DNA of 64,000 nucleotides from Thermoplasmatota archaeon (GCA_035526585.1 DATLCC010000027.1:2660-66659); one strand, 5' to 3'. Shown: positions 17,781-62,041, counted from the first letter of the stretch. Numbers and translations: made by a program. Notes: generated from the sequence alone by a model not told the origin.

Positions 17781-20700
17781 CTATCCCCGCCGTCGGCGCA
17801 GCACGAGCATCGCCGCTCCGATCGCCGCCAGCACCAGCACGAGGGAGGGCGCCGGCAGTGGGGACCCGGGCTTTGCGCTGAACACGACGGCGCTCTCGGC
17901 GATCTTCACGTTGCCGGCGCTGTCGCGGGCCGTCACGTCGATGCGGTAGTCGCCTTCGGGCGGGTTGAACTTGACGACGAACGTGCTCGCGCCCTTGCGC
18001 GTCGCGTTCAGCGTCTGCACGACTTGGCCGTCGCGCTTCACGAGCACGTCGACGCCGGCCACGTTCGCCTCGGTGGCGATCGTGAGCGTGACGTCCTCGT
18101 TGGCGCGGGGGCGTTGCGGGTCCATCGTCACCTTGCTGATGCCCGGCGGCGAGTTGTCGACGGTGAGCGCGAACTTGGCGCTCGTGGCGACGCCGTAGAT
18201 GTTCTCGGCGGTGACGGTGACGTCGACCGGGCCCGCGGCGAAGGTGGACGTGTCGATCTGGAAGTTGGGGCCGCGCAGGTCGTAGCTCACGCCCTTGATG
18301 CTGTAGGTGACCTTCCCGACGCCCAGCGGGTCGCGGATGTCGAGGCGGACGGGCGTGCCGGCGCGGATCGTCGTGCCCTGGTCGGTGGCGAGCTTCACGG
18401 TGGGCGCGCTGCCGGGATTGAGCACGAACGTGCCGACGGTGACGCGCGTCTTGTTGACGTTGGGCGGGTCGGCGGCGTCGGCGGCCTCGGCGGTCACGCG
18501 GTACGTGCCCGCGACGGTGAACGTGCGCGTCGCGTTCCAGCGCCCTTCGCCGACCTTGCTGAGGACGACGGCCTGCGACTCGTTCGTGGGGAAGACGACG
18601 TACGCCGTGACGGACGAGATGCCGGTCGCGTCCTGGAGGTAGACGTCGAGGCTCACGGGCTCGCCCAGCTTCGCGGTGGCGGGCGTCGCGACGATGCGCT
18701 CGATGTGCGGGTTCTCCTCGTCGAGCACGTTCGTGATCGTCGTGGCGCGCAGCGTCTGCTCGGGGCGCAGCTGCGGCTGGACCGTGATCGTGAGCGTGTC
18801 GCGGCCCGCGCCGGGGATGGTCGGCACGTCGATCGTCGCGAGGATGGGGAGCGGCGTCCCGCGCGGGAGCGCGACGGCGAGCTCGGACTGCGACGAGAGC
18901 CAGCCGTGCTCGCTCTCGAAGCGGATGAGGACGGGCTCGTTGGGCTGGTTGCCCTGGTATTCGATGATGAAGGCGTTGGGCGCCTCGCCGTACGTGATGC
19001 TCTGGCCGGGGCGCGCGGAGAGGCCGAGCGCGGGCGTGAGCTTGATGTCGAACGTGCGCAGCGTGAGCGGCTTCGTCCTCTCGTTGGAGGCGGCGCTGTC
19101 GTCGATCTCGGGCACGTTGTCGTCCACGTCGACGCGCGCGAGGATCACGCCGGGGCCTTCGACGCCCACCGTGTCCCACGTGAAGATCTCGACGAGCCGG
19201 CGCTGCCCGGGGATCGCGAGCGCGGGGTACGTCTTCTCGCCGATGACGCGCTCGACGCCGTTCTGCACGAAGTACAGGCGCAGCGTCGTGTTCTTCTCGG
19301 CGGCCTTGTTGCCGTTGTTGCCGACGACGACGCTCACCTCGAGCGGGTCGCCCGTGTAGGGGCTCGTCGAGTTGACGAGGATGTTGTCGACGAAGAGGTC
19401 GGGTCCGCTCACGCGGCCTTCGAGCGTGAGGCTCTTCTCGCGCGTCGGGTCGCTCTTGGAGACGACCTTCACGACGGCGGTCGCCTTCTCGCCGACGATC
19501 GCGCTGCCGGGCGCGCGGAGGGTGACCTGCACGACGCCTTCCTGCGTGGGCTGGAGCTCGAGGTAGCCCAGGCCGTTGACGCTCGGCGTGACCTCGATGC
19601 CCCAGTCGGAGGGGCGCGTGGGGAGCGGGATGGTGAAGTTGTCGGCGACGTTGCCGACGTTCATCACGCGCACGTCGAAGGTGACGTTCGTGCCCGCGTC
19701 CACGAAGGACGTGTTGAGCGGCGCGTCGAGGCGCATGTTGGGGCCGCGGATCACGGTCATCTTGCTCTCGATGCTGACGCGGCGCTCGTCGATCGGCCGG
19801 TCGAGCGGGCCGCTCGAGGTCGCGTTCACGTAGAACGACGCCTGCGTGTCGGGCGCCACGTTGGGGGGCGAGGTGACGGTGAGCGTGAACATCGTCGTGT
19901 TGAACGGCGTGAGGTGCGCCGTGCGCTCGGAGAGGCGAGCGTCCCAGCCGCCCACGGTGGGCACGAGGTCGAGCGAGAGGTTGTCGTAGCCGTTGCCCAG
20001 GTTCTCGATGCCGATGTTGTACACCTGCGGCTCGCCGGGCACCAGGCGCGCGGCCGCGTCGAGGACGGGCGCGACCTCCCAGCGCTGCGCGACGTGCGCG
20101 GTGAAGGTGAGCGTGCAGAAGCCGACGCTCGGGACCTCGTTGGCCTTGCAGCGGCCCGTGCCGGCGTCGCCGAGGCTCTCCATCCTGACCTGCCACGTGT
20201 AGGTCCCGTTCGTCGCGTTGGGCGGCGCCTTCACCTGGATGGTGACGTTCTTGAGCTCGCCCTTGCGGACGACGAGGGTGCCATCGCGGCCGACCGCGTC
20301 GACGCCGGCGCCCGTGATGATGGGGGACCAGCTGTCATTGATGGTCATCGTCTCGTTGATGAACGAGACGTTGAACCGGTCGTCGGCGTTGCCCGTGTTG
20401 TTGAGCGTGATGTTGAAGAAGCGCGTCTGGCCGACCTGCATCTCGCGCCACGTCTCGTTCGAGGTGGCGTTGAGGCTGTGGCGGACGTCCACGATGAAGC
20501 TCGGGAGCGTCGGGTTCTTGCCGCAGTAGATGTCGTCGACGCAGTTGCTCGACACGGCGGTGGTCGTGGTCACGCTGCGCGTGGAGCTCCACTGCACGAA
20601 GTCGCTGGCCTGGCCGACGTTCGTCTCGTTCCCCGCGGTCTCGTTCTCGGGGACGATGATCGTCACGCGCACGACGCGCGACTGCGACTTGCCGAGGCTG

Positions 20701-21545
20701 AAGCGCTCGGGCGCGAAGCTGATGGTGTAGTTGCGGTACTTCGCGAAGTCGAAGTCCGCGGGGAGCCCGCCGATGAACGTGTCCTCGACGGTGCCGGTGT
20801 TGCGGACGTTGTACTCGGCGACGATCGTCTTGCCGGCGACCACCTTGCAGCCGACCTGGACGGCCGGGAACGGCTTCACGGCGCCATCGGGGCACGGCTC
20901 GGTGATCTGGTTGCGCGCCCACGGGCTGTTGAGCGTCTTGTCGGCGCCTTCGGGCGCCGCGCGGACGGGCTTCGCCGTGACGCCGAGCACGCCGACGCTC
21001 ACGCCGTAGATCGTGACCTGGTCGTTCTGGCAGCGCGTGTCGGGGCCCTGGCAACCCGTGAGGTTCTGGCCGGGCGTGCTGCCGATGCTGCCGATCTCCA
21101 GGAAGAGGGACGAGGCATCCGTGCGCTGGTTGGGCTCCGGGTGCCAGACGAGGGAGTAGAGTCGCGATGCGCCCGCGGGGACGGTGAAGGCGTTCGAGCC
21201 GTCGGCGCGCTGCTGGCTCGTCGGCGTCATGCGGATGTAGCACGGGGCGAGCTGCCCGGTGGGGTCCGTGACGCCGTCGCCCGGCTCGACGCAGTCGTTG
21301 CCCGTGCCGAAGCCGACGAAGATCTGCCAACCGGTGGGCGGCGCGAAGTCGACGGTGCCGCCGTTGTGGACGGTGATGTTGATCGGCGCGTCGACGCCGA
21401 TGACGGGCGACCCATAGTTCACGTCCGCGACGAAGACGTCCGAGCCTACGACGGGCTGCGTGCCCTGCGCGGTCGCGAGACCGGCGAAGAGCTCGAGCAC
21501 GAAGAGGCCGACGATGAACGCGGCGACGGTCTTATTCGGCAACAT
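17781..21545 (-). CDS. giant envelope protein E (1254 aa): signal/anchor, NEW3/CARDB-like and Ig-like repeats, C-terminal TM anchor
   Basis: The N-terminal hydrophobic segment is MLPNKTVAAFIVGLFVLELFAGLATAQG. Repeated modules of the COG1470/NEW3 type are present (e.g. FTLTVTSPPNVAPDTQASFYVNATS, VTLRAPGSAIVGEKATAVVKVVS). A CARDB-like module is present (DLFVDNILVNSTSPYTGDPLEVSVVVGNNGNKAAEKNTTLRLYF). C-terminal Ig-like modules are bounded by D-x-x-P-P. The anchor is LPAPSLVLVLAAIGAAMLVLRRRRG. I count about 27 N-x-S/T sequons. The ATG at 21545 overlaps the upstream gene by 14 nt. Confidence 0.85.
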   Translation of the reverse strand: MLPNKTVAAFIVGLFVLELFAGLATAQGTQPVVGSDVFVADVNYGSPVIGVDAPINITVHNGGTVDFAPPTGWQIFVGFGTGNDCVEPGDGVTDPTGQLAPCYIRMTPTSQQRADGSNAFTVPAGASRLYSLVWHPEPNQRTDASSLFLEIGSIGSTPGQNLTGCQGPDTRCQNDQVTIYGVSVGVLGVTAKPVRAAPEGADKTLNSPWARNQITEPCPDGAVKPFPAVQVGCKVVAGKTIVAEYNVRNTGTVEDTFIGGLPADFDFAKYRNYTISFAPERFSLGKSQSRVVRVTIIVPENETAGNETNVGQASDFVQWSSTRSVTTTTAVSSNCVDDIYCGKNPTLPSFIVDVRHSLNATSNETWREMQVGQTRFFNITLNNTGNADDRFNVSFINETMTINDSWSPIITGAGVDAVGRDGTLVVRKGELKNVTIQVKAPPNATNGTYTWQVRMESLGDAGTGRCKANEVPSVGFCTLTFTAHVAQRWEVAPVLDAAARLVPGEPQVYNIGIENLGNGYDNLSLDLVPTVGGWDARLSERTAHLTPFNTTMFTLTVTSPPNVAPDTQASFYVNATSSGPLDRPIDERRVSIESKMTVIRGPNMRLDAPLNTSFVDAGTNVTFDVRVMNVGNVADNFTIPLPTRPSDWGIEVTPSVNGLGYLELQPTQEGVVQVTLRAPGSAIVGEKATAVVKVVSKSDPTREKSLTLEGRVSGPDLFVDNILVNSTSPYTGDPLEVSVVVGNNGNKAAEKNTTLRLYFVQNGVERVIGEKTYPALAIPGQRRLVEIFTWDTVGVEGPGVILARVDVDDNVPEIDDSAASNERTKPLTLRTFDIKLTPALGLSARPGQSITYGEAPNAFIIEYQGNQPNEPVLIRFESEHGWLSSQSELAVALPRGTPLPILATIDVPTIPGAGRDTLTITVQPQLRPEQTLRATTITNVLDEENPHIERIVATPATAKLGEPVSLDVYLQDATGISSVTAYVVFPTNESQAVVLSKVGEGRWNATRTFTVAGTYRVTAEAADAADPPNVNKTRVTVGTFVLNPGSAPTVKLATDQGTTIRAGTPVRLDIRDPLGVGKVTYSIKGVSYDLRGPNFQIDTSTFAAGPVDVTVTAENIYGVATSAKFALTVDNSPPGISKVTMDPQRPRANEDVTLTIATEANVAGVDVLVKRDGQVVQTLNATRKGASTFVVKFNPPEGDYRIDVTARDSAGNVKIAESAVVFSAKPGSPLPAPSLVLVLAAIGAAMLVLRRRRG

Positions 21546-22215
21546 CCGGCAACAACTCCTTCGGGGTGGCCTCGCCGCGGAGCTTGGCTCCGCGCGCGAG
21601 GATGAACAGGGATGCGGCGCCCGCGAGGGCGAGCGCGGCGACGGCGACGCCCAACGGCGCCGTCGTCTCGACGGCGGCGCGCAGCTGCGCGGGGCCGATC
21701 GCGGCGAGGGCGAACGCGGCGCCGATCGCGGCCGCGACGGCGAGCGCGGCGATGGCGGCGCGGCTCGCGAGCGTCTTTAGCGCCTCGTCGGTGACGCGGT
21801 TGATGTGCTCCTCGGGCACGTTCTCCTTCTCGACCGCGCGGTGCGCGCGCTCGTAGCGCTCCGTCATGTGGACGAGCTCGCTCACGAGGAGGAGCGCGAC
21901 GCCGAAGAGCACGCCGATCGCGTACGTGAGGAGCCCGGGGCTCCCGACGCCGCCCGGGATCACGGCGAGGACCATCGCGCCCACGCCCGCGAGGGCGAGG
22001 ACGCTGGAGCGGCGGGCCACGGCGACGAGCGCCGCCACCGCGCCCACGGCGAGGAGCGCGAGGAGCGCGATCGCCGGCACGTGGGCGCCCAGGATGCGGC
22101 CGTCGCCCTTCGACACCTGCACGACGCCCAGCGCGGCGGCCACGACGGCGGCGCCGTACGCGTAGCGGAGAACGCGCTTCTCGTGCGGGAACGGCTCGGT
22201 CTTGGCGGCGCTCAT
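21532..22215 (-). CDS. polytopic membrane protein (227 aa), unknown function, operon member
   Basis: This is the C-terminal part of track ORF 21532..22992, from the ATG at 22215: MSAAKTEPFPHEKRVLRYAYGAAVVAAALGVV.... It has several Ala/Val/Leu-rich TM helices around a charged loop (MTERYERAHRAVEKENVPEEHINRVTDEALK). Its start forms an ATGA overlap with the DUF58 stop. Confidence 0.7.
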   Translation of the reverse strand: MSAAKTEPFPHEKRVLRYAYGAAVVAAALGVVQVSKGDGRILGAHVPAIALLALLAVGAVAALVAVARRSSVLALAGVGAMVLAVIPGGVGSPGLLTYAIGVLFGVALLLVSELVHMTERYERAHRAVEKENVPEEHINRVTDEALKTLASRAAIAALAVAAAIGAAFALAAIGPAQLRAAVETTAPLGVAVAALALAGAASLFILARGAKLRGEATPKELLPDVAE

Positions 22216-23459
22216 GCGACGAGCATCCTCCCTTTCTCCATCGTGGCGGCGAGCAGGTCGCCGGGGTCGAGCTCGATGACGGTGGCGCCGAGGCCCGCGA
22301 CCTCGCGCAGGAGCGTCTCGCGCTCGGCGAAGAGGGCGCGCGCAAGGGCCCCCTCGGCGCCGGGGAGCGCCGGCGGGCGTGGCGCGATGACGGCGACCTG
22401 CATGTTGTTGGCAAGGAGCGTGGAGACGGCCTCGGTGAGCGTGCCGTCGTCCACGCCGGCGGTGAAGAAGATGCAGGGCGTCAAGGGCTTCAAGCTCGGC
22501 AGAGCTTGAGAAACGGCGAACTTCACGGGGAAGTTGCCCTTGGGCTGGAGCTCGGCGAGCGTCTCCAGCATCATGGGGATCATGCGCTCGGGCGGCTGCG
22601 GCTCGATCTCGCGCACGTGGTCGCTGTAGAGGTAGATGCGCGGCTGGTCCTTCTTCACGAAGACGAACTCGGTGAAGCTCGCGACGGCGCGGGCGATCAT
22701 GACGCGCGCGCTCTGGTCCTCGGGGCCGGCGAGCGTGATGCCGCGCGCGTCGACGAAGAGCGTGACCTCCGCCGCGGTCGTGCGCATCATCTGGTTCACG
22801 AGGAGCTTCGACGAGCGCGCGCTCGCCTTCCAGTTGACGCTGCGCAGCGTGTCGCCCGGAACGTATTCGCGGATGCTGAAGAAGTCGAACCCGTCGCCAG
22901 GGCGGTTCACCTGGTGGTCGCCCATGAGCGGCATCGGGAGCGTGGAGAGGAGCGCGGCCTTGCGCAGGTCCTCCGCGCGAGGCAGCACCCACAGGGTGTG
23001 GCTGGCCTCCGTGTGCCGCTCCTCGTAGAAGAGCCCGAACGGGTCCTCGAGGCGCAGGTCGGTGGGGCCGATCTCGTAGACGCCCAGGAGCGGCGCCTTC
23101 ACCTCATACTTCAGGTCGTCCACGGCGCCCGAGGGGAGCGCGAGGAGATCGTACGCCTGCCCGCTCTCGACGGCGAGCTGGCGCGGGAGGCGGTCGCGGA
23201 CCTCGAGGAAGAGGAGCCTGTCGCCCGGGTTCGTGAGGCGCAGCTCGACCTGCGTGCGCTCGCCCTCGAAGACGCGGTGCAGGTCGACCTGGCGCTCGCT
23301 GATGATCTCGTCGCTGCCGCGGAAGAGGAGGCGGTTCACGACGACGAAGGAGAGGAAGACGAGCCCCGTGCCCAGAGCGCCCGCGCTGCGCGAGGCCACG
23401 CCGGCCGCGACGAGCGCGAGACCGGCTCCCGTCAGCAGAACGCTCTTCCTGGTCCACAT
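22212..23459 (-). CDS. DUF58 (VWA-like) domain protein, N-terminally membrane-anchored
   Basis: There are two N-terminal TM helices (LLTGAGLALVAAGVASRSAGALGTGLVFLSFVVV). The DUF58 hallmark follows: FDFFSIREYVPGDTLRSVNWKASARSSKLLVNQ. The position immediately downstream of a MoxR ATPase is the canonical pairing. Confidence 0.85.
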   Translation of the reverse strand: MWTRKSVLLTGAGLALVAAGVASRSAGALGTGLVFLSFVVVNRLLFRGSDEIISERQVDLHRVFEGERTQVELRLTNPGDRLLFLEVRDRLPRQLAVESGQAYDLLALPSGAVDDLKYEVKAPLLGVYEIGPTDLRLEDPFGLFYEERHTEASHTLWVLPRAEDLRKAALLSTLPMPLMGDHQVNRPGDGFDFFSIREYVPGDTLRSVNWKASARSSKLLVNQMMRTTAAEVTLFVDARGITLAGPEDQSARVMIARAVASFTEFVFVKKDQPRIYLYSDHVREIEPQPPERMIPMMLETLAELQPKGNFPVKFAVSQALPSLKPLTPCIFFTAGVDDGTLTEAVSTLLANNMQVAVIAPRPPALPGAEGALARALFAERETLLREVAGLGATVIELDPGDLLAATMEKGRMLVA

Positions 23460-23466
23460 GCGGCGG

Positions 23467-24525
23467 TTACACCTTGGGTACGGGCACGCTGTCGAGGATG
23501 TTCTGCATGATGTCCTGCGCCTTGATGCCCTTGATGCGGGGCTCAGGCTTCAGGATCACGCGGTGCGCGAGCACGGGGATCATGAGGCGCTTGATGTCGT
23601 CGGGCACGACGTAGTCCCTCCCGTGGAGCGCGGCCCAGCCGCGGGCGAGCTTGAACAGGTTCTGCGAGCCGCGCGGCGACGAGCCGGCCACGAGCATCGG
23701 GTGCTTGCGGGTCGCGTCGATGAGGTTCGCGATGTAGTGGATGAGCTCGTCCGTGACGTACACGTGCTCGATCGCCTTCTGCATGGCGACGACGATCTCC
23801 GCGTTCGTCACGGGCTTCACGTCGAAGTCGTCCTTGCCGCGCTTGGCGCGGCGGATGAGGATCTCCGCCTCTTCCGCGGCCGTGGGGTAGCCCATGCTGA
23901 GCTTCATCGCGAAGCGGTCCATCTGCGCTTCCGGCAGCGGGTACGTGCCGGCCTGCTCGACCGGGTTCTGCGTCGCGAAGACGACGAAGGGCTTGGGCAG
24001 CTTCTGCGTGTAGCCTTCCACCGTCACCTGCTTCTCGGCCATCGCTTCCAGCATGGCGGACTGCGTCTTGGGGGAAGCGCGGTTGATCTCGTCCGCGAGG
24101 AGGTAGTTCGTGAAGATCGGACCGGGGCGGAAGTCGAACTCGTGCGTCCTCTGGTTGAGGATGAACGTGCCGTTGATGTCCGCCGGCAGGAGGTCGGGCG
24201 TGAACTGGACGCGCTTGAAGTCGCAACCACTCGCTCGAGCCAGAGCGGCCGCAAGGACGCTCTTGCCAAGCCCCGGCATGTCCTCGAGGAGGACGTGGCT
24301 GCCTTCGCTGAAGATGGCGAGCACCACGAGCTTGAGCTGGTCCTTCTTGCCGACGATCACGCGGCCGACCTCGTCGGTGAGCTGCGTGGCCGTCACGCCC
24401 ACGCTCTGGATCTGGGCGCGGACCTTGGGGTCGCGCACGGGCCCGGGGGCGCTGCCGGCGCTCGCGGGCTGGACGGTCGGACCGACGGTGGTGTTGATAC
24501 GTGTGGCTTCAGGCGGCGGGGTCAC
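23467..24525 (-). CDS. moxR: MoxR-family AAA+ ATPase
   Basis: The protein carries VIVGKKDQLKLVVLAIFSEGSHVLLEDMPGLGKSVLA (Walker A), FTPDLLPADINGT, LLADEINRASPKTQSAMLEAMAE (Walker B / sensor), ATQNPVEQAGTYPLPEAQMDRF and GSSPRGS. The GTG start at 24525 forms a GTGA overlap with the upstream stop. Confidence 0.93.
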   Translation of the reverse strand: MTPPPEATRINTTVGPTVQPASAGSAPGPVRDPKVRAQIQSVGVTATQLTDEVGRVIVGKKDQLKLVVLAIFSEGSHVLLEDMPGLGKSVLAAALARASGCDFKRVQFTPDLLPADINGTFILNQRTHEFDFRPGPIFTNYLLADEINRASPKTQSAMLEAMAEKQVTVEGYTQKLPKPFVVFATQNPVEQAGTYPLPEAQMDRFAMKLSMGYPTAAEEAEILIRRAKRGKDDFDVKPVTNAEIVVAMQKAIEHVYVTDELIHYIANLIDATRKHPMLVAGSSPRGSQNLFKLARGWAALHGRDYVVPDDIKRLMIPVLAHRVILKPEPRIKGIKAQDIMQNILDSVPVPKV

Positions 24526-25775: not shown

Positions 25776-25869
25776 GCATCCACCTCGCGGCGCGGAGCAA
25801 CGCGGATCCGCGAACCCTGGACGCGACGCGCGCGGGTGCGCGGGTCCTCGTTGTTGCGTGGGATGGAGA

Positions 25870-32637: not shown

Positions 32638-32639
32638 GC

Positions 32640-55100: not shown

Positions 55101-58100
55101 ACGCGACGTTGTTGCCGAACGCGGGCGCCATGTGGCCAGAGGGCTGGTTCACGCCGCGGCCCTGCTCGATGAAGCCGGGCGCGCCGTCCGCCGCCGCTCG
55201 CGGCGCGAAGTGCGAGACGTAGCGGTCGTCGCCGCCGAGGTCGAGGAAGAACGCGGTCGCGCCGCCGAAGCTGTTGCCGCCGGCCGCCTGCGCGCGCGGC
55301 ACCCAGCCGTAGGATTCGTTGTCCGCGTCGTAGATGTCGTTGCCTTCGACGTCGATGAAGATCGCGGCCGAGAACGATTCGGCGGCGCCCTGGACGGCGT
55401 GCGTGCCGACGTATTCGTCGCTGCCGCCCGCGTCGAGCAGCATGCCCAGCCCGCCGTACGTGGCGTAGCCCTGCGCGCGGTCCGCCGCGACGAGCTTGCT
55501 CTCGGAGTCTCCGTTGCCGAGCATGGCGAGGACGCCGACGCCCGCGAAGCCGGCGCCCTGCGCGAGGCTGGGCTTGAGGGCCGTCACGGGCGCGACGCCG
55601 TCGTAGCGCGCGGGGAGGCCGGTCGCAAGGCCGATGCCGGCCCAGCGCGCCATCTCGTCGGAGATGTCGCTGTTGCGGATGCCCGTGTAGTTGCCGTCGC
55701 GGTTGGCCGCGCCGACGGGGAACGTGAAGTTCTCGAGGGAGGAGGTCGCGGTCTGCGCGTAGCTCGCGCCCGCGTCGGCGAAGCCGATGTAGAGGCCGAG
55801 CTCGTCGCGCGGGTACTCGCACCCGCTCGCGCCCACGTAGCCGAAGCCGACGGAGTCGGCCCAGCAGTAGGCGAGGTCGTAGATGCTGGGCGGGATCTCC
55901 GTCTGGATGAGGTCCTTGCGGATCTCGTAGACGACGTGCCCGTCCTCGCTCGCGTGGCACTTCACGTCCACCGCGCGCGGCGTGAGGCTCGCGTCGAGGC
56001 CGTCCAGCTGCATCGTGGTGAGGCCCGCCTTGGGGGCGCCGAGGTCGGTGAAGACGCACGCGTGATCCTCGCCCTGGTAGGCGATCTGCAGCTCGTCGAT
56101 GCCGCTGTGGCCCGCGGCCGTGTCGTACTGGCGGCCGAAGTGGCCGATGTCGAGGTCGACGAAGAGCATGTCGCGCGCGCGATCCTTCTCGGTCTGAGAG
56201 AGCGTCGTGCCTTCGAGCGCGAGGTAGAGGGAACGGTTGTCGTTCGCGATGCGCAGCGTCCAGTCGGACGTGTAGCGCGCGTCGCGCTGCGAGCCAAGCT
56301 CGATCGGGATGGGCTCGCCGAAGAAGTCCCACTCGGGGCCGATCGCGCCGTCGATCGCGATCGCGTCGCGGGAGCGGTCGAGCCACTGGCTGCCAAAGCT
56401 CGGGATCGCCTGCTCGAGCGCGCGGTACTCGTCGCGGCCGCCAAGGTCGGCGAGGACGCCGATGCCGAAGTAGCCGACGCCCTGCGAGAGGCCGTGGGCG
56501 ACGTCGTAGGTGGACGCGCCCGTGCCGGCGTCGAGGAGGAACGTCACGGGGAAGAGGTTGAGCGGCTGCGAAACGGCCGAGAACGGCGTCTGCGTGCCGG
56601 CGGCCGCCGCGCCGTTCTGCGGCGGGCCCTGGGCGAGGTAGTCGCGGATGAGGCCGGCCGCGCTGTAGTCGTACGAGTTGTTGCCGCCGAGGTCCACGAC
56701 GAAGGCGTACTCGTCGGAGAAGGTCGTGTGGCCGGAGTCGCCGATGGCGAGGCGCGCGGTGGGCATGTCGACCAGGAAGCCGGCGTGATCGATCGCGGAG
56801 CCGCCGCCCACGAGGCCGGCGAGGAACGCGCCGGTCGGGTCGTTGGTCTCCGTGTCGATGTGGACGCCGACGTCCGCGTAGAGGCGCGGGTTCGTCTGCC
56901 CGTTCGTGGCCGTCTCGGCGCGCGTGAGGGTCGTGTTCTGGTTGCGCGCGAGGGAGACGGAGCCCGGCTGGAGGTAGACGTCGCTGCCCGAGAGATCCAC
57001 GAGGATCGCGGCGGCGGGGCGCGGCGCGTTCGCGGGCGCAACGTCGCGCGTGGCCACGGTCTGGGAGAGCGTCCAGCCGAAGCTCCACTTGTCGTTCGCG
57101 AAGTAGCGGTCGCGGCCCTTCACGTCGAGGAGCGCGCCCACGCCACCGATGCCGCCGACGCCGTGCGTCTGCGTCGCGCTGGGGCGCGCAGCGTACGTCT
57201 CGTTCCCCTCCGTGGACGCGAGGAGGCCGAGCGCGTAAGGCGCGTTCTTCGGCGTGTCCGCGCCGCTGCCGCGGTTCATCGCGCTCGCGAAGCCGCGACC
57301 GAAGCCTTGGCTGTGGTTGCCGGCGACGAAGGTGTCGTCGCCTGCGCCCAGGTCGAGGAGGAGGCCGACGTCGCGGCGCGCGCTGCCAAGCGGCGTGTCG
57401 CTCGTCGCGTCGTTCGTGACGTTGCCGCCCTGGGGGAAGCCCGCGGTCTCGCGGTCGTCGGGGATGCCGGCGAGGTTGGCGCCCTGGCTCAGGTCGCCCG
57501 CAGCGTAGCTGTCGGTGCCCGCGAGGTCGATGAGCGCGCCGCCGAGCGCGCCCTGGCTGCCGGCGCCGGCGACGTACGCATCCGCGCCGGCGGTGTCGAC
57601 GAGGACGCCGTAGAGGGAGCCCTGCGCGTAGGAGCGCGAGGCGTTCACATACTCGTCCGCGTCGCTCGCGCCCGCCGCGAGGGCGCTGCCCGTCGCGCTC
57701 GTGAGGTCGACGTTCACGACGAGGCTCGGAGCGAGGAACGTGTCGTTGAGCTGCGGCGTGAAGTTGCCCTTCTCGTCCGGGATCGAGCGCGTGACGACGG
57801 GGAGCGCGCCGCCGGCGCTGTTCACCAGGTGGTCGCGGCCGCCCAGGTCGATGATGACGAAGTAGTCGTCCTGGTACGTCGTCTCGACGACGTCGCCGAT
57901 CGCGAGGATCCCCGCGGGGACCTGGAAGGAGAATCGGCTCTCGCTGAAGTCGCCGCCGTTCTGCAGCGTGCCGGCGCCAGGGACGCTGCCCGTCCCTTCG
58001 CCAGGCGCTGCCGTGTCGTAGGCCACGTACGCGCAGCGCTCGATCGTGCGCTCCTGGGGGCGCGCGGGGCGCGTCGTGTTCGGGTCGGTCTGCCCGAAGA

Positions 58101-61100
58101 TGGGGTTCTGGTCGCCCACCACGCGCTCGCCGGGGAAGAAGCCCAGCGGCGCGGAGCCGTTCACCATGAACTCGCCCGTGCAGGCGTAGTCGATCGAGCC
58201 GGCGTCCTGGAGCGGGAGGCGCAGGTCGACGATCTTGTCGCTTCCGCGCATCGACGTGTCGTTCTCGTCCGCCGGGTTCGAGGCGAGCGGATCCACGCGG
58301 CGACCGACGCCCGCGCCGTCGAGGCCGTTCTCCTCGATGACGGTCCAGACGGCCTGCGGGATGACGATCGCAGGGCCCGACGGGAAGCCCGCGGGGTAGG
58401 ACGTGGGAGCGTCCGGGTCGGTGGAGAGCGCTCGCTCGACGTAGTTCGGATAGCCGTCGCCGTCCGTGTCGTTCGCGATCGCCTCCGCGCGCGCGGTGGG
58501 CTGCGTGAGCGGGCTGCTGCGCTGATCCGCAGGGTCCGTGCCCGCGAGGAGCTCGACGAAGTCGGGGAACGCGTCGCGGTCGGGATCCGCGTTGCTGACC
58601 ACGACCTCCGTGTCGACGCCGAGGCCCGCGGAGAGCGCGCCGGGGCCGTCGAGCCAGACGCGGTTGTCCGCGCGCTCCGTGAGCGTCGTGAGGTTGCCGC
58701 CGGGAACGATCTCGAGGTTCACGAGCGGCGCGCCGTTCGGGGCGTGCTCGTTCTCGTAGGCGTCCTTGCCTCCGAGGTCCACGAAGACGCCGCCGAGGCC
58801 GTACCCCTGGCCCGACATCGCGGCGTACTGGTCGTCCGCGCCGTCGTCGAGCAGGATGCCGACGCCCAGCGTGAACGTGTCCGACGCGGCGCCCTGCGAG
58901 AGCTGCTGCGCATGGTAGATGTCGCGGCTGCCGGAAAGGTCCGCAAGAAGCGCGAGGCCGAGGCGGGAGTAGCCCTGGCTCATGGAGGGCGCGTCGTAGC
59001 TGTCGCCGCCGTCGGCGTCGACGAGCACCGCGACGCCGCCCACGGGCGCGGACGCCTGCGACGGGTGGCCGCGCGCCGAGCCGAGGGCCAGCTCGAGCGG
59101 GGAGAAGATGTCGTAGAACGACGTCGGGTCGTTGTAGCGGTCCGCGCCGCCCATGTCGAGGTGGAGCGAAACGGGGAGCGACGCGTTCGTGTGCACCATG
59201 GCGACGGGCATGTTGTACACGTCGTTGCCGTCGAGGTCGAGCGAGACGGTGGGCGCGCCGTAGCGCATGACGGTCTCGTAGTGGCACGTCGCCGACGCGC
59301 GCGCGGGCTCGACATGGGCCGGGACGGAGCCGCTGCTTCCGGTCGAGAAGCCACCGCCGCCGATGGTGGGGCCGGTGCTGGGCTGCGGCGGCTGCGCAGC
59401 GATCTGGTTCACGGGGCACACGAGGCGGCGCGCCTCCTCGGGCGTGTGCGTCGTCGAATCCGCGCCGGTGATCACGAGGAGCTCGAGGCTCGCCTCGCCG
59501 CCGGTCGGGTAGTGGCGGATGCCGTCGTGCACGTCGCCGGGGTCCTGGTAGCCGTAGACCATGCACTGCGCGTCGGTGCACGTGTAGACGCCGCCAGAGT
59601 GCGCATCGTCAGCATACGAAGGCATCTGGCCGGCCGCGTTCGACTCGGCGGGCGTGAAGCCGAAGCTGTCGACGGGCCAGCGCAGGCGGAGGAGGACGTC
59701 CTCGCCGCACTGGTCCACGATGCCGGGGACGATCTGGCACGCGGGCGTGTCGCCGTCGTCGATCTGGGCGCGCGCGCCTCCGAACGGGAGGAGGTGGCGC
59801 AGGAAGGAGAGGACGCCCGTCTCGACGGGCGTCGCGGACGCGGAGGCGCTCGCGTAGGCGCCCGCGCCCTGGAGGATCGCGCGCGCCTGCTCGCCCGCGA
59901 GCGTCGCGACGATGCCGGCCTGCGCGAGCGCGTCCTCGTCGACGCGCGCGGCGAGCGCGGTCGCGAGCGCGAGCTCCTCGAGCTCTGCGGCGGTGAGATC
60001 CTCGCCGTAGAGCGCGTCGAAGCCCTGCGCGCGGCGCAGCGTCTCGATCTCGCTCGCGGAAAGGTGCGCGAACGCCTGCTGCTGGAGGCGCGCGCTCTGC
60101 GCCGCGCCGCTCATGAGGACAGCGGCGGCGTCGCGCGTCGCGGGGTCGAGGCGGGCGGCGCCCTCGTCGGCGGCCGCGCGGTGCTCGGGGAGCACCGTGT
60201 AGCCCGCGAGCGTCAGCATGTCGACGTACGCGTCCGTGAAGGAGAGGACCTTGAGCTTCGGGACGGCGGGGTCGGTGCCGGTGATGATATCACCCGCGCG
60301 GACGGCGTCCACGAGCGCGCCGTGCGTCGAGGCGAGAAGCGCCGCGTGGTGCGCGGCCCAGCCGACGCGCGCGCCCGGCGTCCATTCGCCCACGCGCAGC
60401 GCATCGGGCGCGGCGCGCCAGTACAGGCCGTACTTCTCGAGCGTCGGGAGCGCGGCGGAGGTCGCGACGAGCACGTTCGCGAGCGCGGCGGACTGCGACG
60501 TGGGCGTGAGGCCCGAGGGGCTCGCGGCGGTGATGGCCTGCGCCTCGGCCATGACGAGGCGCGCGATCGCGGCCTGCAGGTCGAGCGGGAGCGCATGCGC
60601 GCGCGCGAGCACGTCGGCCTGCGCGGCGGGCGAGGGCGCCTGGCCGCTCGCGGCGAGGAGCGCGGCGAGCGCATCCTCGAACGAGGGCGCGACGCCCGCG
60701 TCCGCGAGAGGGACGTTCGCGGCGAGCGAGACGAGCTTCGCGGCGAGGAGGACCTTCTGCGCGTCGCTCGCCTTGTCGTCGGAGGCGACGATGAGAGAGA
60801 GGATGGCCTTCGTGGTCTCGTCCAGCGACGCGGTGTCGAGCCCTTCGAGCTCGGCGCGGGCCGCGTGGTCGGCGAGGGAGCCGCGCGTCGCCTCGACGGC
60901 CTCGAGCACGAGGAGCGTCGCCTCGATGCTCTTGCGCATGTCCACGAGCGACGCGAGGATCGCCATGCGGCGCGTCTCCGGCGTGCTGATCCCCTGCGCG
61001 AGGTCGCTCGCGACGTCCGGGTGCGAGTAGACCCACGCGAGCTCGTCGGGCGTGAGGAGCGCCAGCGCCTCGCGCTGCATCTGCGTCGCCGTGATGGTCG

Positions 61101-61638
61101 AAAGGAGCAGGAGCGCGACGTCGCGCTGCACGTCGAGGGGCAGCGCGTCCGCGCGCGCAAGCTGCGCCGCGAGCTCCGCGGGCGGCACGACGGAGCCCGT
61201 CGCCGCGACCCACGCGAGGATGGCCGCGCGCAGCGGCGCCTCGGGCGCGATCGCGTCGACGGGAAGAGGAGGCACCGCGAGGTCGCGGTAGCCCATGAGG
61301 TCCGCGGCGCCGAGGACCTGGCCGAGAAGGACCGAGCTGCTGGCATCAGCTCGGACCGGGGAGGCAAGCTCGTCGGCGGAGGGACGGGAGGAGGATCCGT
61401 CCGTTCCATCGGGAGCACGTGATCCGGAGGAGGGGGGCGACGTCGAGCCGCCTGGAACGACGAAGGGAAGGTCCGAGCCTCCATCGGCGGCGCTGCCGCC
61501 GTCGGAGGCGTGGCGAGCCGCCGCTGCCGCCCGCTCGTCGGCGGCCTCGAGGGCCACCTGCGCCAGGGGGAACGCGGAGACTACCAGGGTAAGAACAAGA
61601 GTCCCAGCTAGGACCTTCAGTATCGTCGCTCGCTTCAC
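49150..61638 (-). CDS. giant envelope protein A (4162 aa): signal peptide, Ala/Leu-rich helical domain, long D-x-G-G-x-D-x-Y repeat (solenoid-like) region with an inserted CBM9/DOMON-like domain, Ig-like/FN3 array, C-terminal TM anchor
   Basis: The GTG start at 61638 is preceded by GGAGG. The signal is MKRATILKVLAGTLVLTLVVSAFPLAQ. The repeat region is described under the findings. FN3-like modules are present (e.g. LRLSWNAATDDVAVAAYRVYRSEDAVVFRMVAEVTGTRYDDAGLPYEKLYTYKVAALD and FRVTNVTHNSLVLHWKTSEPTSAMAKFG). Ig-like modules are bounded by D-x-T/A-P-P/A. The anchor is GIAGLALALVAAVGIAAVLGRKKKEGSK. Confidence 0.88.
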   Translation of the reverse strand: MKRATILKVLAGTLVLTLVVSAFPLAQVALEAADERAAAAARHASDGGSAADGGSDLPFVVPGGSTSPPSSGSRAPDGTDGSSSRPSADELASPVRADASSSVLLGQVLGAADLMGYRDLAVPPLPVDAIAPEAPLRAAILAWVAATGSVVPPAELAAQLARADALPLDVQRDVALLLLSTITATQMQREALALLTPDELAWVYSHPDVASDLAQGISTPETRRMAILASLVDMRKSIEATLLVLEAVEATRGSLADHAARAELEGLDTASLDETTKAILSLIVASDDKASDAQKVLLAAKLVSLAANVPLADAGVAPSFEDALAALLAASGQAPSPAAQADVLARAHALPLDLQAAIARLVMAEAQAITAASPSGLTPTSQSAALANVLVATSAALPTLEKYGLYWRAAPDALRVGEWTPGARVGWAAHHAALLASTHGALVDAVRAGDIITGTDPAVPKLKVLSFTDAYVDMLTLAGYTVLPEHRAAADEGAARLDPATRDAAAVLMSGAAQSARLQQQAFAHLSASEIETLRRAQGFDALYGEDLTAAELEELALATALAARVDEDALAQAGIVATLAGEQARAILQGAGAYASASASATPVETGVLSFLRHLLPFGGARAQIDDGDTPACQIVPGIVDQCGEDVLLRLRWPVDSFGFTPAESNAAGQMPSYADDAHSGGVYTCTDAQCMVYGYQDPGDVHDGIRHYPTGGEASLELLVITGADSTTHTPEEARRLVCPVNQIAAQPPQPSTGPTIGGGGFSTGSSGSVPAHVEPARASATCHYETVMRYGAPTVSLDLDGNDVYNMPVAMVHTNASLPVSLHLDMGGADRYNDPTSFYDIFSPLELALGSARGHPSQASAPVGGVAVLVDADGGDSYDAPSMSQGYSRLGLALLADLSGSRDIYHAQQLSQGAASDTFTLGVGILLDDGADDQYAAMSGQGYGLGGVFVDLGGKDAYENEHAPNGAPLVNLEIVPGGNLTTLTERADNRVWLDGPGALSAGLGVDTEVVVSNADPDRDAFPDFVELLAGTDPADQRSSPLTQPTARAEAIANDTDGDGYPNYVERALSTDPDAPTSYPAGFPSGPAIVIPQAVWTVIEENGLDGAGVGRRVDPLASNPADENDTSMRGSDKIVDLRLPLQDAGSIDYACTGEFMVNGSAPLGFFPGERVVGDQNPIFGQTDPNTTRPARPQERTIERCAYVAYDTAAPGEGTGSVPGAGTLQNGGDFSESRFSFQVPAGILAIGDVVETTYQDDYFVIIDLGGRDHLVNSAGGALPVVTRSIPDEKGNFTPQLNDTFLAPSLVVNVDLTSATGSALAAGASDADEYVNASRSYAQGSLYGVLVDTAGADAYVAGAGSQGALGGALIDLAGTDSYAAGDLSQGANLAGIPDDRETAGFPQGGNVTNDATSDTPLGSARRDVGLLLDLGAGDDTFVAGNHSQGFGRGFASAMNRGSGADTPKNAPYALGLLASTEGNETYAARPSATQTHGVGGIGGVGALLDVKGRDRYFANDKWSFGWTLSQTVATRDVAPANAPRPAAAILVDLSGSDVYLQPGSVSLARNQNTTLTRAETATNGQTNPRLYADVGVHIDTETNDPTGAFLAGLVGGGSAIDHAGFLVDMPTARLAIGDSGHTTFSDEYAFVVDLGGNNSYDYSAAGLIRDYLAQGPPQNGAAAAGTQTPFSAVSQPLNLFPVTFLLDAGTGASTYDVAHGLSQGVGYFGIGVLADLGGRDEYRALEQAIPSFGSQWLDRSRDAIAIDGAIGPEWDFFGEPIPIELGSQRDARYTSDWTLRIANDNRSLYLALEGTTLSQTEKDRARDMLFVDLDIGHFGRQYDTAAGHSGIDELQIAYQGEDHACVFTDLGAPKAGLTTMQLDGLDASLTPRAVDVKCHASEDGHVVYEIRKDLIQTEIPPSIYDLAYCWADSVGFGYVGASGCEYPRDELGLYIGFADAGASYAQTATSSLENFTFPVGAANRDGNYTGIRNSDISDEMARWAGIGLATGLPARYDGVAPVTALKPSLAQGAGFAGVGVLAMLGNGDSESKLVAADRAQGYATYGGLGMLLDAGGSDEYVGTHAVQGAAESFSAAIFIDVEGNDIYDADNESYGWVPRAQAAGGNSFGGATAFFLDLGGDDRYVSHFAPRAAADGAPGFIEQGRGVNQPSGHMAPAFGNNVAWTQNGTGLGADYVLASTIRDVTAGALAQTLYGTTRTTLNFTRYVDGLGCTSEIIEPRGRSFFATGKVCFLATVNTSTGAENRTLAPLTKQLATLAGGDPTDGSADVENATRSLDVRSVDFFLDRERVATSTNVTSVQRGVTLWSAVVDLGNFSDGVKLAKALPTFSAQLADRSVLLFGDEMGNSANETVTRNATRTLVVNNAPVVKRLELAPEYTGIANATFSPYAYGEAQQLYVNWSASFDAEEDPFEAANGWRIPAWNRSFPCEGLAIDQDQPQLCNALTFYLDNAANTESDTNPGGDAFGTPAKLKVETINGEPFASRIEPLGADLRVTSKQSVHVALPNRTALITTAPLNTQILVGVKYANGTNVKDAFGKDWYLASGTFTKSRSATDGVPLPDVGGIASLFGPVRQLVIDSLGTTAKQVDDNVHGNVIFNVVDSIAAPVCTQGGADTCATYNGDIRSGQLKPCQASPQPIANGPGVNLPAWLVWYPVQVLERGGVFRPNTAPGGQQALIPNQTLPTGPVHVCVDVNGNLHDVASAFTDVVTPVTDGIPHLCGLIPCKDEGGEGGSGGAGDLDNVDFTDFYLDANEPDATVQAAGIVSDGSTIVVPKDMRLTVTVGLVTDNAQPGPGDSISGAFNAAADAVNDTENPATGDHLVPGIEETRGTGVPVLNRTDVRENVTTVLRNFGNTNGQNLNSLVGGLGSLPGSFFFYKSGGHPDYQARIEFRTPATPSTQVSVTLDDPATGEVKETLRDTSYVEGDVDGSPRRGGGELDTAYWNAIGHRPLANWSASGSSDRWTQHNTTRNDLTREGVFLANVTATDAQGLSTSRVDSVLIDRTPPASFLTTGSVTPGSTATVYVGSGSLAGAGGVPVEWASVDLSAASGSDVPAPGSGVSQVYVFYRHGEEGDLATGWSALGATGDPAPIVEDNFAPALARAIPATRTSRTVSSSGDPVHLFLTVAVDRAHNVEGTANEATLLDAVRSAFYAKLSRGADVQHGYARLVVDQGQPVFSGLALTGGLLSSFQGSDYTFVRAGQPIAFGICVRDLETGIGTVTLQLYHIDPTTQESTKASRAATPAGACPAGQEGTMWSFGGWSRENVDKSVFPEGIWLAQFDVEDKAGNSISVSAGRVILDHASPAVHVLPPILPPGQTAVKPGDQVKLRLTAEDAFGVDEGRITVDASAFAKNASALKVRPVRVNGLIYQEATFFVDKPNLADAAYTITVRVPDLAGNVTTVLVPLAVNAKAFDFVPGSFRVTNVTHNSLVLHWKTSEPTSAMAKFGTSAIALNGRTPLDTNASVEHALKVEGLQPSTRYSLRAVSASTGGFSKESDIVEATTITALFLQPQLPARGDNVSGLVKVAFRGGLLDSADFVSYTLEVRNATTSAWTFVTTATRQGDSHELRWNSTRFLDGTTYELRLTAEAGHDVASAVIGPFTSDNTPPAVIVSSPLLATNDTTPRLLAETSDALSGFPSVPAALYVDGELVTKNLTIDALPDARLRLSYDIPDALEAGMRTFELRILDNAGNVAKETWKVAIDGDAPVITVNPTRYAPGTGAAKQGGTVTLNLTVHDLSGVSIVTADTSALSDVGSVRLVKIVNADEWQGTFSVSSAEAAATKTVKVHAVDLAGNEKDIDVSIPVDNVAPTVGSTTISETKHTRVVVKVPANEPILVTGTATAPASPAVTVSSIVAAPTVDLAFEGLLPSRSYQYDLKVTDLAGNEVPLHGSFATLQDTKAPTTVGPLSVLDLLNGTLRLSWNAATDDVAVAAYRVYRSEDAVVFRMVAEVTGTRYDDAGLPYEKLYTYKVAALDYGANEGPTDGVLRASATAVPRLTVGAATPTIGTVSTTFHYAVTYASPGGKAPAYVRVILDGVPQNMTLVSGDAKTGAAYTYETRLAPHKRDAPHTYAFEASDGRYTARFPEDGSVLRGPLVSGDALAGGDASGLASFAQKVPLGGIAGLALALVAAVGIAAVLGRKKKEGSK

Positions 61639-61646
61639 GTGAACCG

Positions 61647-61651
61647 CCTCC
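61647..61651 (-). promoter_or_regulatory. Shine-Dalgarno-like GGAGG upstream of the operon's first gene
   Basis: The minus strand reads TGAGGAGGCGGTTCAC-GTG, placing GGAGG 8 nt upstream of the GTG at 61638. This contrasts with the apparently leaderless genes elsewhere in the window. Confidence 0.4.
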
Positions 61652-61863
61652 TCAGGCGTGCTCCAAAGTGGCCCGCTGCCAGGCGAGCCTCCCAGGGTAG
61701 CCGGGTAGTCCCCGGGCCCCCTCTTGAGTTTTGCTACACACGGTTTGACCGTCTCCGCCGGCGTGGCAAAGGGGCGTTCCGCCTGTTGAACGGGCGTTCT
61801 AGACGTGAGATGGTCTCACGAGACTCTGTGCGCTTCGGGAGGAGCGACGTTGCGCCCTGGCCT

Positions 61864-61883
61864 GCCACGTGGCGCCATGTGGC
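61864..61883. repeat. palindrome copy 1: GCCACGTGGCGCCATGTGGC (one mismatch from perfect)
   Basis: This was read directly from the sequence. The flanks extend the dyad to CCTGCCAC...GTGGCAGG (61861-61886). Confidence 0.9.
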
Positions 61884-61949
61884 AGGACGGGGCGGCGCGG
61901 GACACGTGTGAGCATTTGGTTACGCGAGCTGCGCGCCGCCGCCCGCGAT

Positions 61950-61969
61950 GCCACATGGCGCCATGTGGC
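61950..61969. repeat. palindrome copy 2: GCCACATGGCGCCATGTGGC (perfect 20-bp dyad)
   Basis: This was read directly from the sequence and is identical to its own reverse complement. Confidence 0.95.
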
Positions 61970-62021
61970 CGGGCGGGCGCCCGGCGCTGCCCGCCACAGC
62001 GGCGCACACGGCCCCCCGGCT

Positions 62022-62041
62022 GCCACATGGCGCCATGTGGC
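62022..62041. repeat. palindrome copy 3: GCCACATGGCGCCATGTGGC (perfect; dyad extends to 24 bp, CTGCCACATGGCGCCATGTGGCAG, 62020-62043)
   Basis: This was read directly from the sequence and is identical to its own reverse complement. Confidence 0.95.

Follow-up and report, generated by a model that had tools for sequence, protein, structure and literature searches.

A nine-gene operon of a Thermoplasmatota archaeon joins the genes of five giant envelope proteins to a DUF4350-MoxR-DUF58 membrane module

A stretch of 64,000 nt from a Thermoplasmatota archaeon (GCA_035526585.1, DATLCC010000027.1:2660-66659; hereafter the window) carries nine consecutive minus-strand genes, g1 to g9, that span 17781-61638 and form a 44-kb operon (Table 1). 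Five of them (g1, g2, g3, g4 and g9) encode giant proteins amounting to 13,175 aa in all, and the other four encode a DUF4350 protein, a MoxR-type AAA+ ATPase, a DUF58 protein and a small polytopic membrane protein. The initial annotation had described this locus as nine tightly packed genes, and our list of open reading frames (ORFs) reproduced their strand, their sizes and all of the claimed junctions: GTGA overlaps at 49150-49153 (g1/g2), 36908-36911 (g2/g3) and 24522-24525 (g5/g6), an ATGA overlap at 22212-22215 (g7/g8), a 14-nt overlap at 21532-21545 (g8/g9), a 2-nt gap between g3 and the TTG start of g4 at 32637, and a 7-nt gap at 23460-23466 (g6/g7). The end of the locus, originally placed at 61651, overshoots the GTG start of g1 (61638) by 13 nt, the extra stretch covering the ribosome-binding site of this gene.

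A ribosome-binding motif (GGAGG, GAGGTG or AGGAG) is positioned 7-12 nt 5' of all nine starts. The G+C content of third codon positions is 0.94-0.98 in eight of the nine ORFs (g8 was not scored separately because its frame was merged into a longer ORF), in a window of ~70% G+C. No AT-rich promoter-like element is visible in the g4/g5 gap, the only sizeable one in the operon, and the spacing between the two genes in relatives ranges from an overlap of 4 nt to a distance of 128 nt. The window also contains an Orc1/Cdc6 gene, and the Rfam and tRNA scans of it were empty.

The assignments of DUF4129, DUF4350, MoxR and DUF58 proposed in the initial annotation were all recovered by Pfam profile search. 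The g6 product, which is cytoplasmic, matches AAA_3 over its full length (E 1.2e-61) as well as AAA_lid_2, and has both the Walker A (PGLGKS) and the Walker B (LLADEINR) motifs. The g7 product matches DUF58 (E 1.6e-12) and has at its N-terminus a pair of hydrophobic helices bordered by basic residues, a transmembrane (TM) hairpin by which the DUF58 body is predicted to be cytoplasmic, beside MoxR. In six of six g7 homologues the DxSxS motif of the metal-ion-dependent adhesion site (MIDAS) is replaced by D[AG]R[AG] (within FVD[AG]R[AG][IV]), the remaining DUF58 signature being nearly invariant. The g8 product is polytopic, as had been claimed (~5 TM segments in a hydropathy scan); it shows a sub-threshold match to TgpA_N (E 1.2e-3, 18.3 bits against a cut-off of 30 bits) and none to SpoIIM (PF01944) or RDD in Pfam. 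Its most conserved stretch is a nearly invariant loop, ELVHMTxRYExAHR...NRVTDEAL.

The g5 product is a DUF4350 protein of the arCOG01314 type (Pfam E 4e-10) with a TM segment at aa 15-33, an ectodomain at aa ~45-300, a second TM segment at aa ~301-321 and a helical cytoplasmic tail of 96 aa (aa 322-417), the core of which is better conserved (mean identity 76%) than the ectodomain (56%). The best match to its AlphaFold (AF2) model (53 sequences, pLDDT 86.7) was the GIFT domain of IFT52 (IFT52-N, E 1.8e-7), followed by a subunit of the yeast oligosaccharyltransferase complex and the trimerisation domain of GH42 beta-galactosidase. The ectodomain is thus predicted to adopt a GIFT (IFT52/GldG/OST48-like) fold of the flavodoxin-like kind, in agreement with the HHpred-based GldG/flavodoxin assignment of DUF4350 (Makarova et al. 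2015, PMC5898192).

The fourth gene links this membrane module to the giant proteins. Its product is bitopic, with one TM segment at aa 21-39, another at aa 2119-2137, an ectodomain of ~2,080 aa between them and a cytoplasmic tail, in which DUF4129 occupies the extreme C-terminus (aa 2169-2237, Pfam E 2.6e-15). The ectodomain contains nine DxDxDGxxD motifs of the TSP3 calcium-binding type along with Ig/MG/CarboxypepD_reg-like domains (Ig, immunoglobulin), and shows sub-threshold matches to TSP3 proteins of the CglD/MtsD type. The tail is the best-conserved part of the protein (mean identity 74%, vs 44-59% for the ectodomain). A phmmer search with the TM segment and DUF4129 tail yielded 1662 matches. 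Among the best 150 of them, taken as representatives of 50%-identity clusters, 61 are at least 1000 aa and 28 at least 1500 aa long, and in the long matches listed the similarity lies at or near the C-terminus. Within a sample of 26 large DUF4129 proteins, DUF4129 itself was found in 25, Big_3_5 in 14, CarboxypepD_reg in 14, TSP3 in 8 and Transglut_core in 5; most of the relatives checked have a bitopic topology like that of g4. The last ~800 aa of g4 align to giant archaeal transglutaminase-DUF4129 proteins (E 4e-44 to 2e-22), and the N-terminal transglutaminase module of one such relative (P0153) has no counterpart in g4. By these alignments, g4 is a transglutaminase-less member of a wide and unnamed archaeal family with the architecture ectodomain-TM-DUF4129, related to the bacterial TgpA. 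Loci of this family from marine group II-type (Thalassarchaeaceae-like) archaea (L013/L014 and L018) encode transglutaminase-DUF4129 giants of 2982-3088 aa, always preceded by an unannotated protein of 973-981 aa; they have no MoxR, DUF58 or DUF4350 neighbours and look like a separate two-gene arrangement.

This relationship brings up a proteolytic function. Zhang and Aravind (2012, PMC3495828) described widespread MoxR-vWA-TgpA/YebA transglutaminase operons and proposed that they act in membrane-proximal proteolysis; by analogy, the MoxR protein at the present locus would unfold membrane or surface proteins to be cleaved by a transglutaminase-like peptidase, as a form of quality control. Besides the published operon model, the TgpA-type C-terminus of g4 (TM segment and DUF4129, homologous to the transglutaminase-bearing giants) and the weak TgpA_N similarity of g8 would fit such a scheme. 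However, no transglutaminase or other peptidase core was found in any of the nine products, either by Pfam or by alignment with transglutaminase-bearing relatives, nor was an HExxH motif, and the core is present in only a minority (5/26, see above) of the sampled large DUF4129 proteins. We therefore consider the proteolytic alternative very improbable.

The other four giants are secreted proteins by prediction, and for all five the hydropathy scan bore out the claimed combination of an N-terminal signal or TM segment with a C-terminal TM segment. In g1, a signal peptide is followed by a ~3,200-aa ectodomain region with 12 cysteine pairs and then by Big_3_2, Big_13 and fn3 domains, the beta domains recognisable by Pfam being those of the C-terminal ~900 aa, from about aa 3280. 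In g2, which also has a signal peptide, there is an N-terminal choice-of-anchor-J/MAM-like region, and the recognisable beta domains (four CARDB and one NEW3) fall within the C-terminal ~600 aa. The g3 product consists of a signal peptide, ~700 aa of all-beta structure and then choice-of-anchor-T, DUF7507, NEW3 and CARDB domains (aa 700-1330 by profile). Finally, g9 combines a signal peptide with choice-of-anchor-T, CARDB and Filamin/Big_13-like domains. The arrays of adhesin-type beta domains seen by the initial annotation are thus real for parts of the giants, yet the ~3,200 N-terminal aa of g1 and ~3,400 N-terminal aa of g2 have almost no match in Pfam, NCBIfam or PDB, the exceptions being few, short and mostly sub-threshold (e.g. 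choice-of-anchor J at g2 aa 140-207). The Ig-like domains identified in the giants (CARDB, NEW3, Big_13, Big_3_2, fn3, DUF7507 and choice-of-anchor T) are confined to the membrane-proximal parts, and PDB sequence searches with g1, g2 and g4 returned fn3/CARDB-type matches or nothing. For g3, where aa 33-720 are all-beta by prediction, the AF2 model of aa 1-720 (24 sequences, pLDDT 84, pTM 0.85) is entirely beta with no enzyme-like fold, and Foldseek found only weak matches of it to multi-domain beta-sandwich proteins.

The GenBank version of g3 has 1389 aa and starts 34 codons downstream of ours (36809-36911), which removes the signal peptide. Since 27 g3 homologues begin with MSVRGGRG followed by a signal peptide, and a ribosome-binding site precedes the upstream GTG, the originally proposed start at 36911 is the real one and the NCBI start is truncated.

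Could the giants be artefacts of repeat collapse during assembly? We rejected this possibility because internal similarity is almost absent: the sole pair in an all-against-all BLASTP comparison (g2 aa 3611-4081 and g3 aa 899-1377) is 25% identical. In addition, the gene lengths recur in independent assemblies. The suggestion that these are glycoproteins fits the distribution of N-X-S/T sequons, which are enriched 2.3-2.6-fold over shuffled sequences in the five giants (z 3.6-8.2), with the highest density of all nine products in g9, while none of 15 other window proteins tested shows a comparable enrichment (highest z 2.4). The giants also contain close cysteine pairs, and this combination of extracellular signatures (sequons and paired cysteines) is confined to them.

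A tripartite pattern resembling a sorting signal of the exosortase/archaeosortase kind is present at the C-terminal end of g1, g2 and g9 as well as of most g3 homologues; in it, [VIT]PGPG, PAP or PGF precedes ~18 hydrophobic residues and RRRR. Around the hydrophobic stretch, g1 has VPLGG and KKK, g2 has TPAP and RRQRR, g3 has VPGPG and an R-rich tail, and g9 has PLPAPS and RRRRG. The pattern recurs in homologues from L003, L005, L006 and L008-L012, some of which read PGF exactly. Short hidden Markov models gave borderline scores: 27.8 with Heimdall-CTERM (cut-off 24) and 21.6 with Loki-CTERM (cut-off 19.9) for the g9 homologue of L003, 16.3 with PEP_CTERM (cut-off 16) for g9 itself, and 21.1 with PGF_CTERM, under the cut-off of 24.5, for the g2 homologue of L010. 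No archaeosortase gene is present within the 64-kb window. The pattern suggests archaeosortase-type processing, by which the giants may be lipid-anchored rather than simply held by a TM segment.

The close relatives of the operon stem exclusively from soil metagenomes, with g5 identities of 47-73%. Gene order and overlaps are conserved among independent assemblies (loci L001, L003/L010, L006, L008, L009, L011 and L012, with L015 as a distant one). Four of the assemblies preserve the succession g3-g4-g5-g6-g7-g8-g9 in full and two more preserve part of it; the overlaps of 4 nt are found again in relatives, as is that of 14 nt between g8 and g9. Three further assemblies show g2-g3-g4-g5, with g2 homologues of 4065, 4501 and 4499 aa directly upstream of the g3 homologues. 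The g1-g2 pair was found outside this contig in L005 only, where a g1 homologue (at least 3694 aa, 45% identity) overlaps a g2 homologue by 4 nt; a search with the N-terminal 1,200 aa of g2 yielded two partial relatives only, and no relative of g2 turned up in two scans of JGI metagenomes. A GTDB genome scan with a g5 alignment gave four loci, and distant loci were obtained by phmmer with the g4 tail combined with six neighbourhood look-ups. The distant L015 shows the same order of g2-like (3687 aa), g3-like (1423 aa), g4-like (2169 aa) and DUF4350 genes at 23-27% identity. In another archaeal lineage (L019), two DUF4129 proteins of ~1200 aa are accompanied by a DUF4350-like gene, MoxR and DUF58, and in L016 a 2653-aa transglutaminase-TSP3-DUF4129 protein is followed by DUF4350 and DUF58. 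Overall, the occurrence of the cassette beside giant ORFs is not due to chance adjacency, as it recurs in at least seven independent assemblies (one being the 23-27% identical L015) and in a related form in L019.

Two side observations concern these relatives. In L019 (positions 1-7441), a complete archaellum operon (archaellins, FlaCDE, FlaH-like, FlaI and FlaJ) lies ~2.5 kb upstream of the cluster on the same strand. L008 (JAJPHT010000008.1) contains g3-g9 homologues and the GAPDH-like gene described below, with a MoxR protein 86% identical to g6, and belongs to a metagenome-assembled genome labelled 'Proteobacteria bacterium Centralia_MAG_189'; this contig is probably mis-binned or the genome mislabelled.

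The products differ greatly in their rate of divergence. MoxR (g6) is 83-92% identical in relatives, as compared with 35-54% for the giants g9, g3, g2 and g1; with the preferential conservation of the g4 and g5 tails and the near-invariance of the g8 loop, these identities single out the cytoplasmic parts as the most constrained side of the system.

Several features flank the operon (Table 1). Downstream, a GAPDH-like gene is always found 3' of g9 in relatives, at a distance of 170-480 nt (357 nt here). Considered as a tenth member of the operon, this 351-aa gene was rejected: it encodes a divergent type II GAPDH-like protein, is 357 nt away and is a syntenic housekeeping neighbour. Further downstream on the same strand is an ATP-binding cassette (ABC) ATPase/permease pair, which is present in L006 and not in L003. 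It may be functionally connected to the operon, given that the modelled g5 fold is related to that of GldG, which serves an ABC transporter as an accessory protein. On the other side of the operon, the divergent intergenic region 5' of g1 is its probable promoter/regulatory region. The palindrome CCACATGGCGCCATGTGG, which reads TGCCACATGGCGCCATGTGGCA in its extended form, occurs there three times, at intervals of 86 and 72 bp; chance would predict no copy at all, and the rest of the window has none. The three sites may act as operators of a dimeric regulator or may belong to a small repeat element. The divergent gene beyond this region encodes a secreted Cys-rich protein (N-terminus MSTIKITLTMAIAAVLATPAGIASW...). 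A 535-aa minus-strand ORF at 62236-63843 was discarded as spurious, being the wrong strand of this high-GC3 gene.

Table 1. Coordinates of the operon genes, their selected elements and the flanking features (window positions)
Feature	Position	Strand	Description
g1	49150-61638	-	4162 aa
g2	36908-49153	-	4081 aa
g3	32640-36911	-	1423 aa
g4	25870-32637	-	2255 aa, TTG start
g5	24522-25775	-	417 aa, DUF4350
g6	23467-24525	-	352 aa, MoxR AAA+ ATPase
g7	22212-23459	-	415 aa, DUF58
g8	21532-22215	-	227 aa, counted from ATG at 22215
g9	17781-21545	-	1254 aa
g4/g5 intergenic gap	25776-25869	-	94 nt, only sizeable gap
DUF4129 tail of g4	25873-26226	-	aa 2138-2255, cytoplasmic by topology
Tripartite C-terminus of g1	49153-49260	-	VPLGG, hydrophobic stretch, KKK
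Tripartite C-terminus of g2	36911-37020	-	TPAP, hydrophobic stretch, RRQRR
Tripartite C-terminus of g3	about 32820-32900	-	VPGPG, hydrophobic stretch, R-rich tail
Tripartite C-terminus of g9	17784-17880	-	PLPAPS, hydrophobic stretch, RRRRG
GAPDH-like gene	16368-17423	-	351 aa; NF003251 E 1e-30, below cut-off; SCNTH motif; no Pfam match
ABC ATPase and FtsX/MacB-type permease	12015-15867	-	274 aa and 966 aa (permease with large extracytoplasmic domain); downstream, same strand
Divergent intergenic region 5' of g1	61639-62278		640 nt
Palindrome, three copies	61865-61882, 61951-61968, 62023-62040		CCACATGGCGCCATGTGG; extended form TGCCACATGGCGCCATGTGGCA
Divergent gene, secreted Cys-rich protein	62279->64000, runs off window	+	N-terminus MSTIKITLTMAIAAVLATPAGIASW...; at least 574 aa in window

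From the gene content, topology, folds, conservation and translational coupling observed at this locus, we infer the contacts and the direction of action in a model to which we give about an even chance of being correct: a cytoplasmic MoxR/DUF58 chaperone would act via membrane adaptors to assemble, maintain or remodel a giant surface complex. The proposed system would have two layers. The membrane core would comprise the MoxR ATPase (g6), the membrane-tethered DUF58 protein (g7), the small polytopic g8 and two bitopic adaptors (g5 and g4), while g1, g2, g3 and g9, presumably Sec-exported, N-glycosylated, disulfide-bonded and provided with their sorting-signal-like C-termini, would constitute the second layer. 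A MoxR hexamer with its DUF58 adaptor would serve as a dedicated ATP-driven assembly or remodelling chaperone, after the example of NorQ/NorD and RavA/ViaA, its targets being the tails and loops that g4, g5 and g8 expose to the cytoplasm. Through them, the giant glycoproteins would be organised, retained or rearranged as a complex on the cell surface, an adhesive or protective coat. Earlier comparative genomics (PMC5898192, PMC3495828) leads in this direction too. A bolder version, in which the MoxR ring, through the tails of the DUF4129 and GIFT proteins, mechanically powers shape changes or motion of the giant calcium-binding and Ig-array proteins at the cell surface, as a megadalton ATP-driven transmembrane machine of a new kind, is a long shot; if true, archaea would have their own equivalent of inside-out integrin activation or of the gliding/adhesion complexes of bacteria, and the machine could form the main envelope of uncultured soil Thermoplasmatota.

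A number of observations weigh against the chaperone model. With ordinary Sec-type signals, the giants could reach the surface unaided. The degenerate MIDAS of g7 means that the classical metal-dependent contact between a vWA domain and its ligand may not apply. In L016, no MoxR gene adjoins the other members of the cassette, and some giant DUF4129 proteins (those of the marine group II type with ~3,000 aa, and a 1334-aa protein in L017) have no MoxR, DUF58 or DUF4350 neighbours at all. Moreover, the downstream GAPDH-like gene (85-91% identical) is as syntenic in the close relatives as the operon itself; since it is an unrelated neighbour, synteny among close relatives alone is weak evidence. 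Taken to the extreme, the last two points would mean that the giants and the cassette have no functional link and are mere neighbours by virtue of general synteny in a narrow clade. We disfavour this view as scarcely credible, because relatives have retained the start/stop overlaps of 4 and 14 nt, because L015 shows the same order in spite of its low identity and analogous arrangements occur in L019 and L016, and because g4 physically unites DUF4129, a domain of the cassette, with a giant ectodomain in one protein.

The idea that the DUF4350/MoxR/DUF58/membrane-protein module is instead a dedicated device for secretion or membrane insertion of the neighbouring giants follows from a prediction published for arCOG01314 neighbourhoods (Makarova et al. 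2015, PMC5898192). The GIFT fold, shared by GldG of a gliding- and type IX secretion-associated ABC transporter and by the oligosaccharyltransferase-complex subunit, is compatible with it, and proteins of 4,000 aa may need help in crossing the membrane or folding. Against it, all five giants carry the ordinary Sec-type signal peptides or anchors mentioned above, and a channel-forming component is not recognisable, g8 having just ~5 TM segments in 227 aa. MoxR ATPases are remodelling chaperones rather than translocases, which also counts against an export function. Furthermore, the 2015 model assumed a secreted DUF58 protein, whereas the DUF58 body is cytoplasmic by topology. All this makes a secretion device, in our opinion, a decidedly unlikely solution.

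We return to the chaperone model to consider how it relates to known systems. The initial annotation had stated that the link between such a module and giant surface proteins was not known to have been described. This is incorrect in view of the archaeal prediction of 2015 and of the bacterial precedents (MoxR-vWA-transglutaminase, PFNA and Esr). Makarova, Galperin and Koonin (Biochimie 2015, PMC5898192) predicted a 'novel secretion or membrane-remodelling system' around arCOG01314 in many archaea, composed of DUF4350, a MoxR ATPase, an Ig-like protein with vWA (DUF58) and Ig-like/S-layer-like membrane proteins; Thermoplasmata are listed in their table as being without arCOG01314. The present operon resembles this system in a DUF4350 protein that is anchored in the membrane and has a flavodoxin/GldG(GIFT)-like domain outside the cell (g5), in a MoxR/GvpN-family ATPase (g6, with its 4-nt overlap with g5) and a DUF58 protein (g7) in the same predicted operon, and in further membrane and surface proteins with Ig-like domains. 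It differs in having five giants (1,254-4,162 aa), one with a DUF4129 tail, as Ig-like partners, and in that the DUF58 protein looks cytoplasmic (TM hairpin) and not secreted. The arCOG02487/02884 partner (COG4743, pfam07760) has no match in any product at E <= 0.01, CARDB, NEW3, Big and fn3 domains being found instead.

With the MoxR-vWA-TgpA/YebA operons (PMC3495828; for TgpA of Pseudomonas aeruginosa, PMC3507681) the locus shares the MoxR and DUF58 pair and a protein ending in a TM segment and DUF4129 (g4). In contrast to these operons, it has no transglutaminase core, bears DUF4129 on a bitopic protein whose ectodomain measures 2,080 aa, and encodes the polytopic part, with its sub-threshold TgpA_N similarity, in a small gene of its own (g8); DUF4350 and four more giants are added. 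By gene content, the operon is both a giant-protein form of the arCOG01314 system and a transglutaminase-less relative of the MoxR-vWA-TgpA systems, and the ectodomain-TM-DUF4129 family, with or without a transglutaminase core, ties the archaeal and the bacterial system together.

Another group of bacterial systems suggests an opposite direction of information flow. In the Esr pathway of Schaalia odontolytica (bioRxiv 10.64898/2026.09.08.750141), which is experimentally needed for the response to epibionts, MoxR and vWA proteins occur with a transglutaminase retaining a surface filament of 14 Ig domains and with kinase/FHA outputs; the bifidobacterial PFNA operon (PMC8430577) has the order fn3-MoxR-duf58-tgm and encodes Ig/FN3 surface proteins. 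In these and in the MoxR-vWA ternary systems (PMC7159879), as at the present locus, MoxR and vWA genes cluster with a large secreted surface protein of Ig/FN3 repeats, so that a cytoplasmic ATPase pair is coupled to an extracellular filament. By analogy with the Esr or ternary conflict systems, the Ig-array giants could be extracellular sensors (of contact, predators, epibionts or viruses) the state of which is relayed by MoxR/DUF58. In addition to this similar make-up of the Esr and PFNA loci, ectodomains that evolve as fast as these do (35-55% identity) relative to MoxR are expected of sensor heads, and the conserved cytoplasmic tails of g4 and g5 would suit signalling. On the other hand, the outputs of the bacterial systems (Ser/Thr kinase, phosphatase or FHA) were not found here, nor were their transglutaminase and the beta-propeller head that Esr has, and the bacterial surface proteins add up to a far smaller size. 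In particular, no signalling or effector domain (Ser/Thr kinase, FHA, phosphatase, toxin) was detected by Pfam/NCBIfam in the nine genes or in the scanned flanking genes, and no output module, a transcription factor included, in the nine genes or immediate flanks. No beta-propeller (WD40-type) family matched any product either, a search of limited sensitivity because ~6,600 aa of g1 and g2 are without assignment. Five giants of 13,175 aa would also make a very costly sensor. Altogether, outside-in sensing strikes us as unlikely, if less so than the other alternatives.

The chaperone model has its closest functional parallels in NorQ/NorD and RavA/ViaA (PMC9976466, PMC3893208), where a MoxR hexamer and a vWA-type adaptor are dedicated to the maturation of one membrane complex. 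What they serve, unlike the clients presumed here (the anchors of surface proteins), is respiratory enzymes and cofactor insertion, and the MIDAS of DUF58 is degenerate here. With respect to gene order, the actinobacterial cassette mentioned in the initial annotation does exist (Rv3691-Rv3695: DUF4350, MoxR, DUF58, SpoIIM and RDD). Within Rv3689-Rv3695, the succession of DUF4350 (Rv3691), MoxR (Rv3692), DUF58 (Rv3693) and a membrane protein matches that of g5-g8, with SpoIIM-like (Rv3694c) and RDD (Rv3695) proteins in place of g8 and no giant ORFs. The DUF4129 partner in Actinobacteria, such as the 324-aa protein encoded close to a DUF58 gene in Streptomyces, has a few hundred residues, as opposed to the 2255 aa of g4.

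Of the gene pairs that lack an explanation in bacteria and archaea, MoxR-DUF58 modules are some of the most common, and neither DUF4350 nor DUF4129 has an assigned function. The locus provides an unusually explicit client list for such a module, with DUF4129 attached to a 2,080-aa surface ectodomain and four more giants translationally coupled to the ATPase genes, which makes the proposition that MoxR/DUF58 is a chaperone for surface-protein assemblies directly testable. For a lineage of soil Thermoplasmatota that has no member in culture, it also reveals envelope proteins amounting to 13 kaa, which bears on particle attachment or self-protection in these organisms. Overall, the comparison identifies the locus as an unusually large variant of a known, functionally unsolved system rather than a categorically new kind. 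What is new is its occurrence in soil Thermoplasmatota, the amount of protein (13,175 aa in five giants) encoded within one coupled operon, the presence of DUF4129 in one protein with a giant ectodomain that lacks a transglutaminase, and the resulting bridge between the arCOG01314 and TgpA systems.

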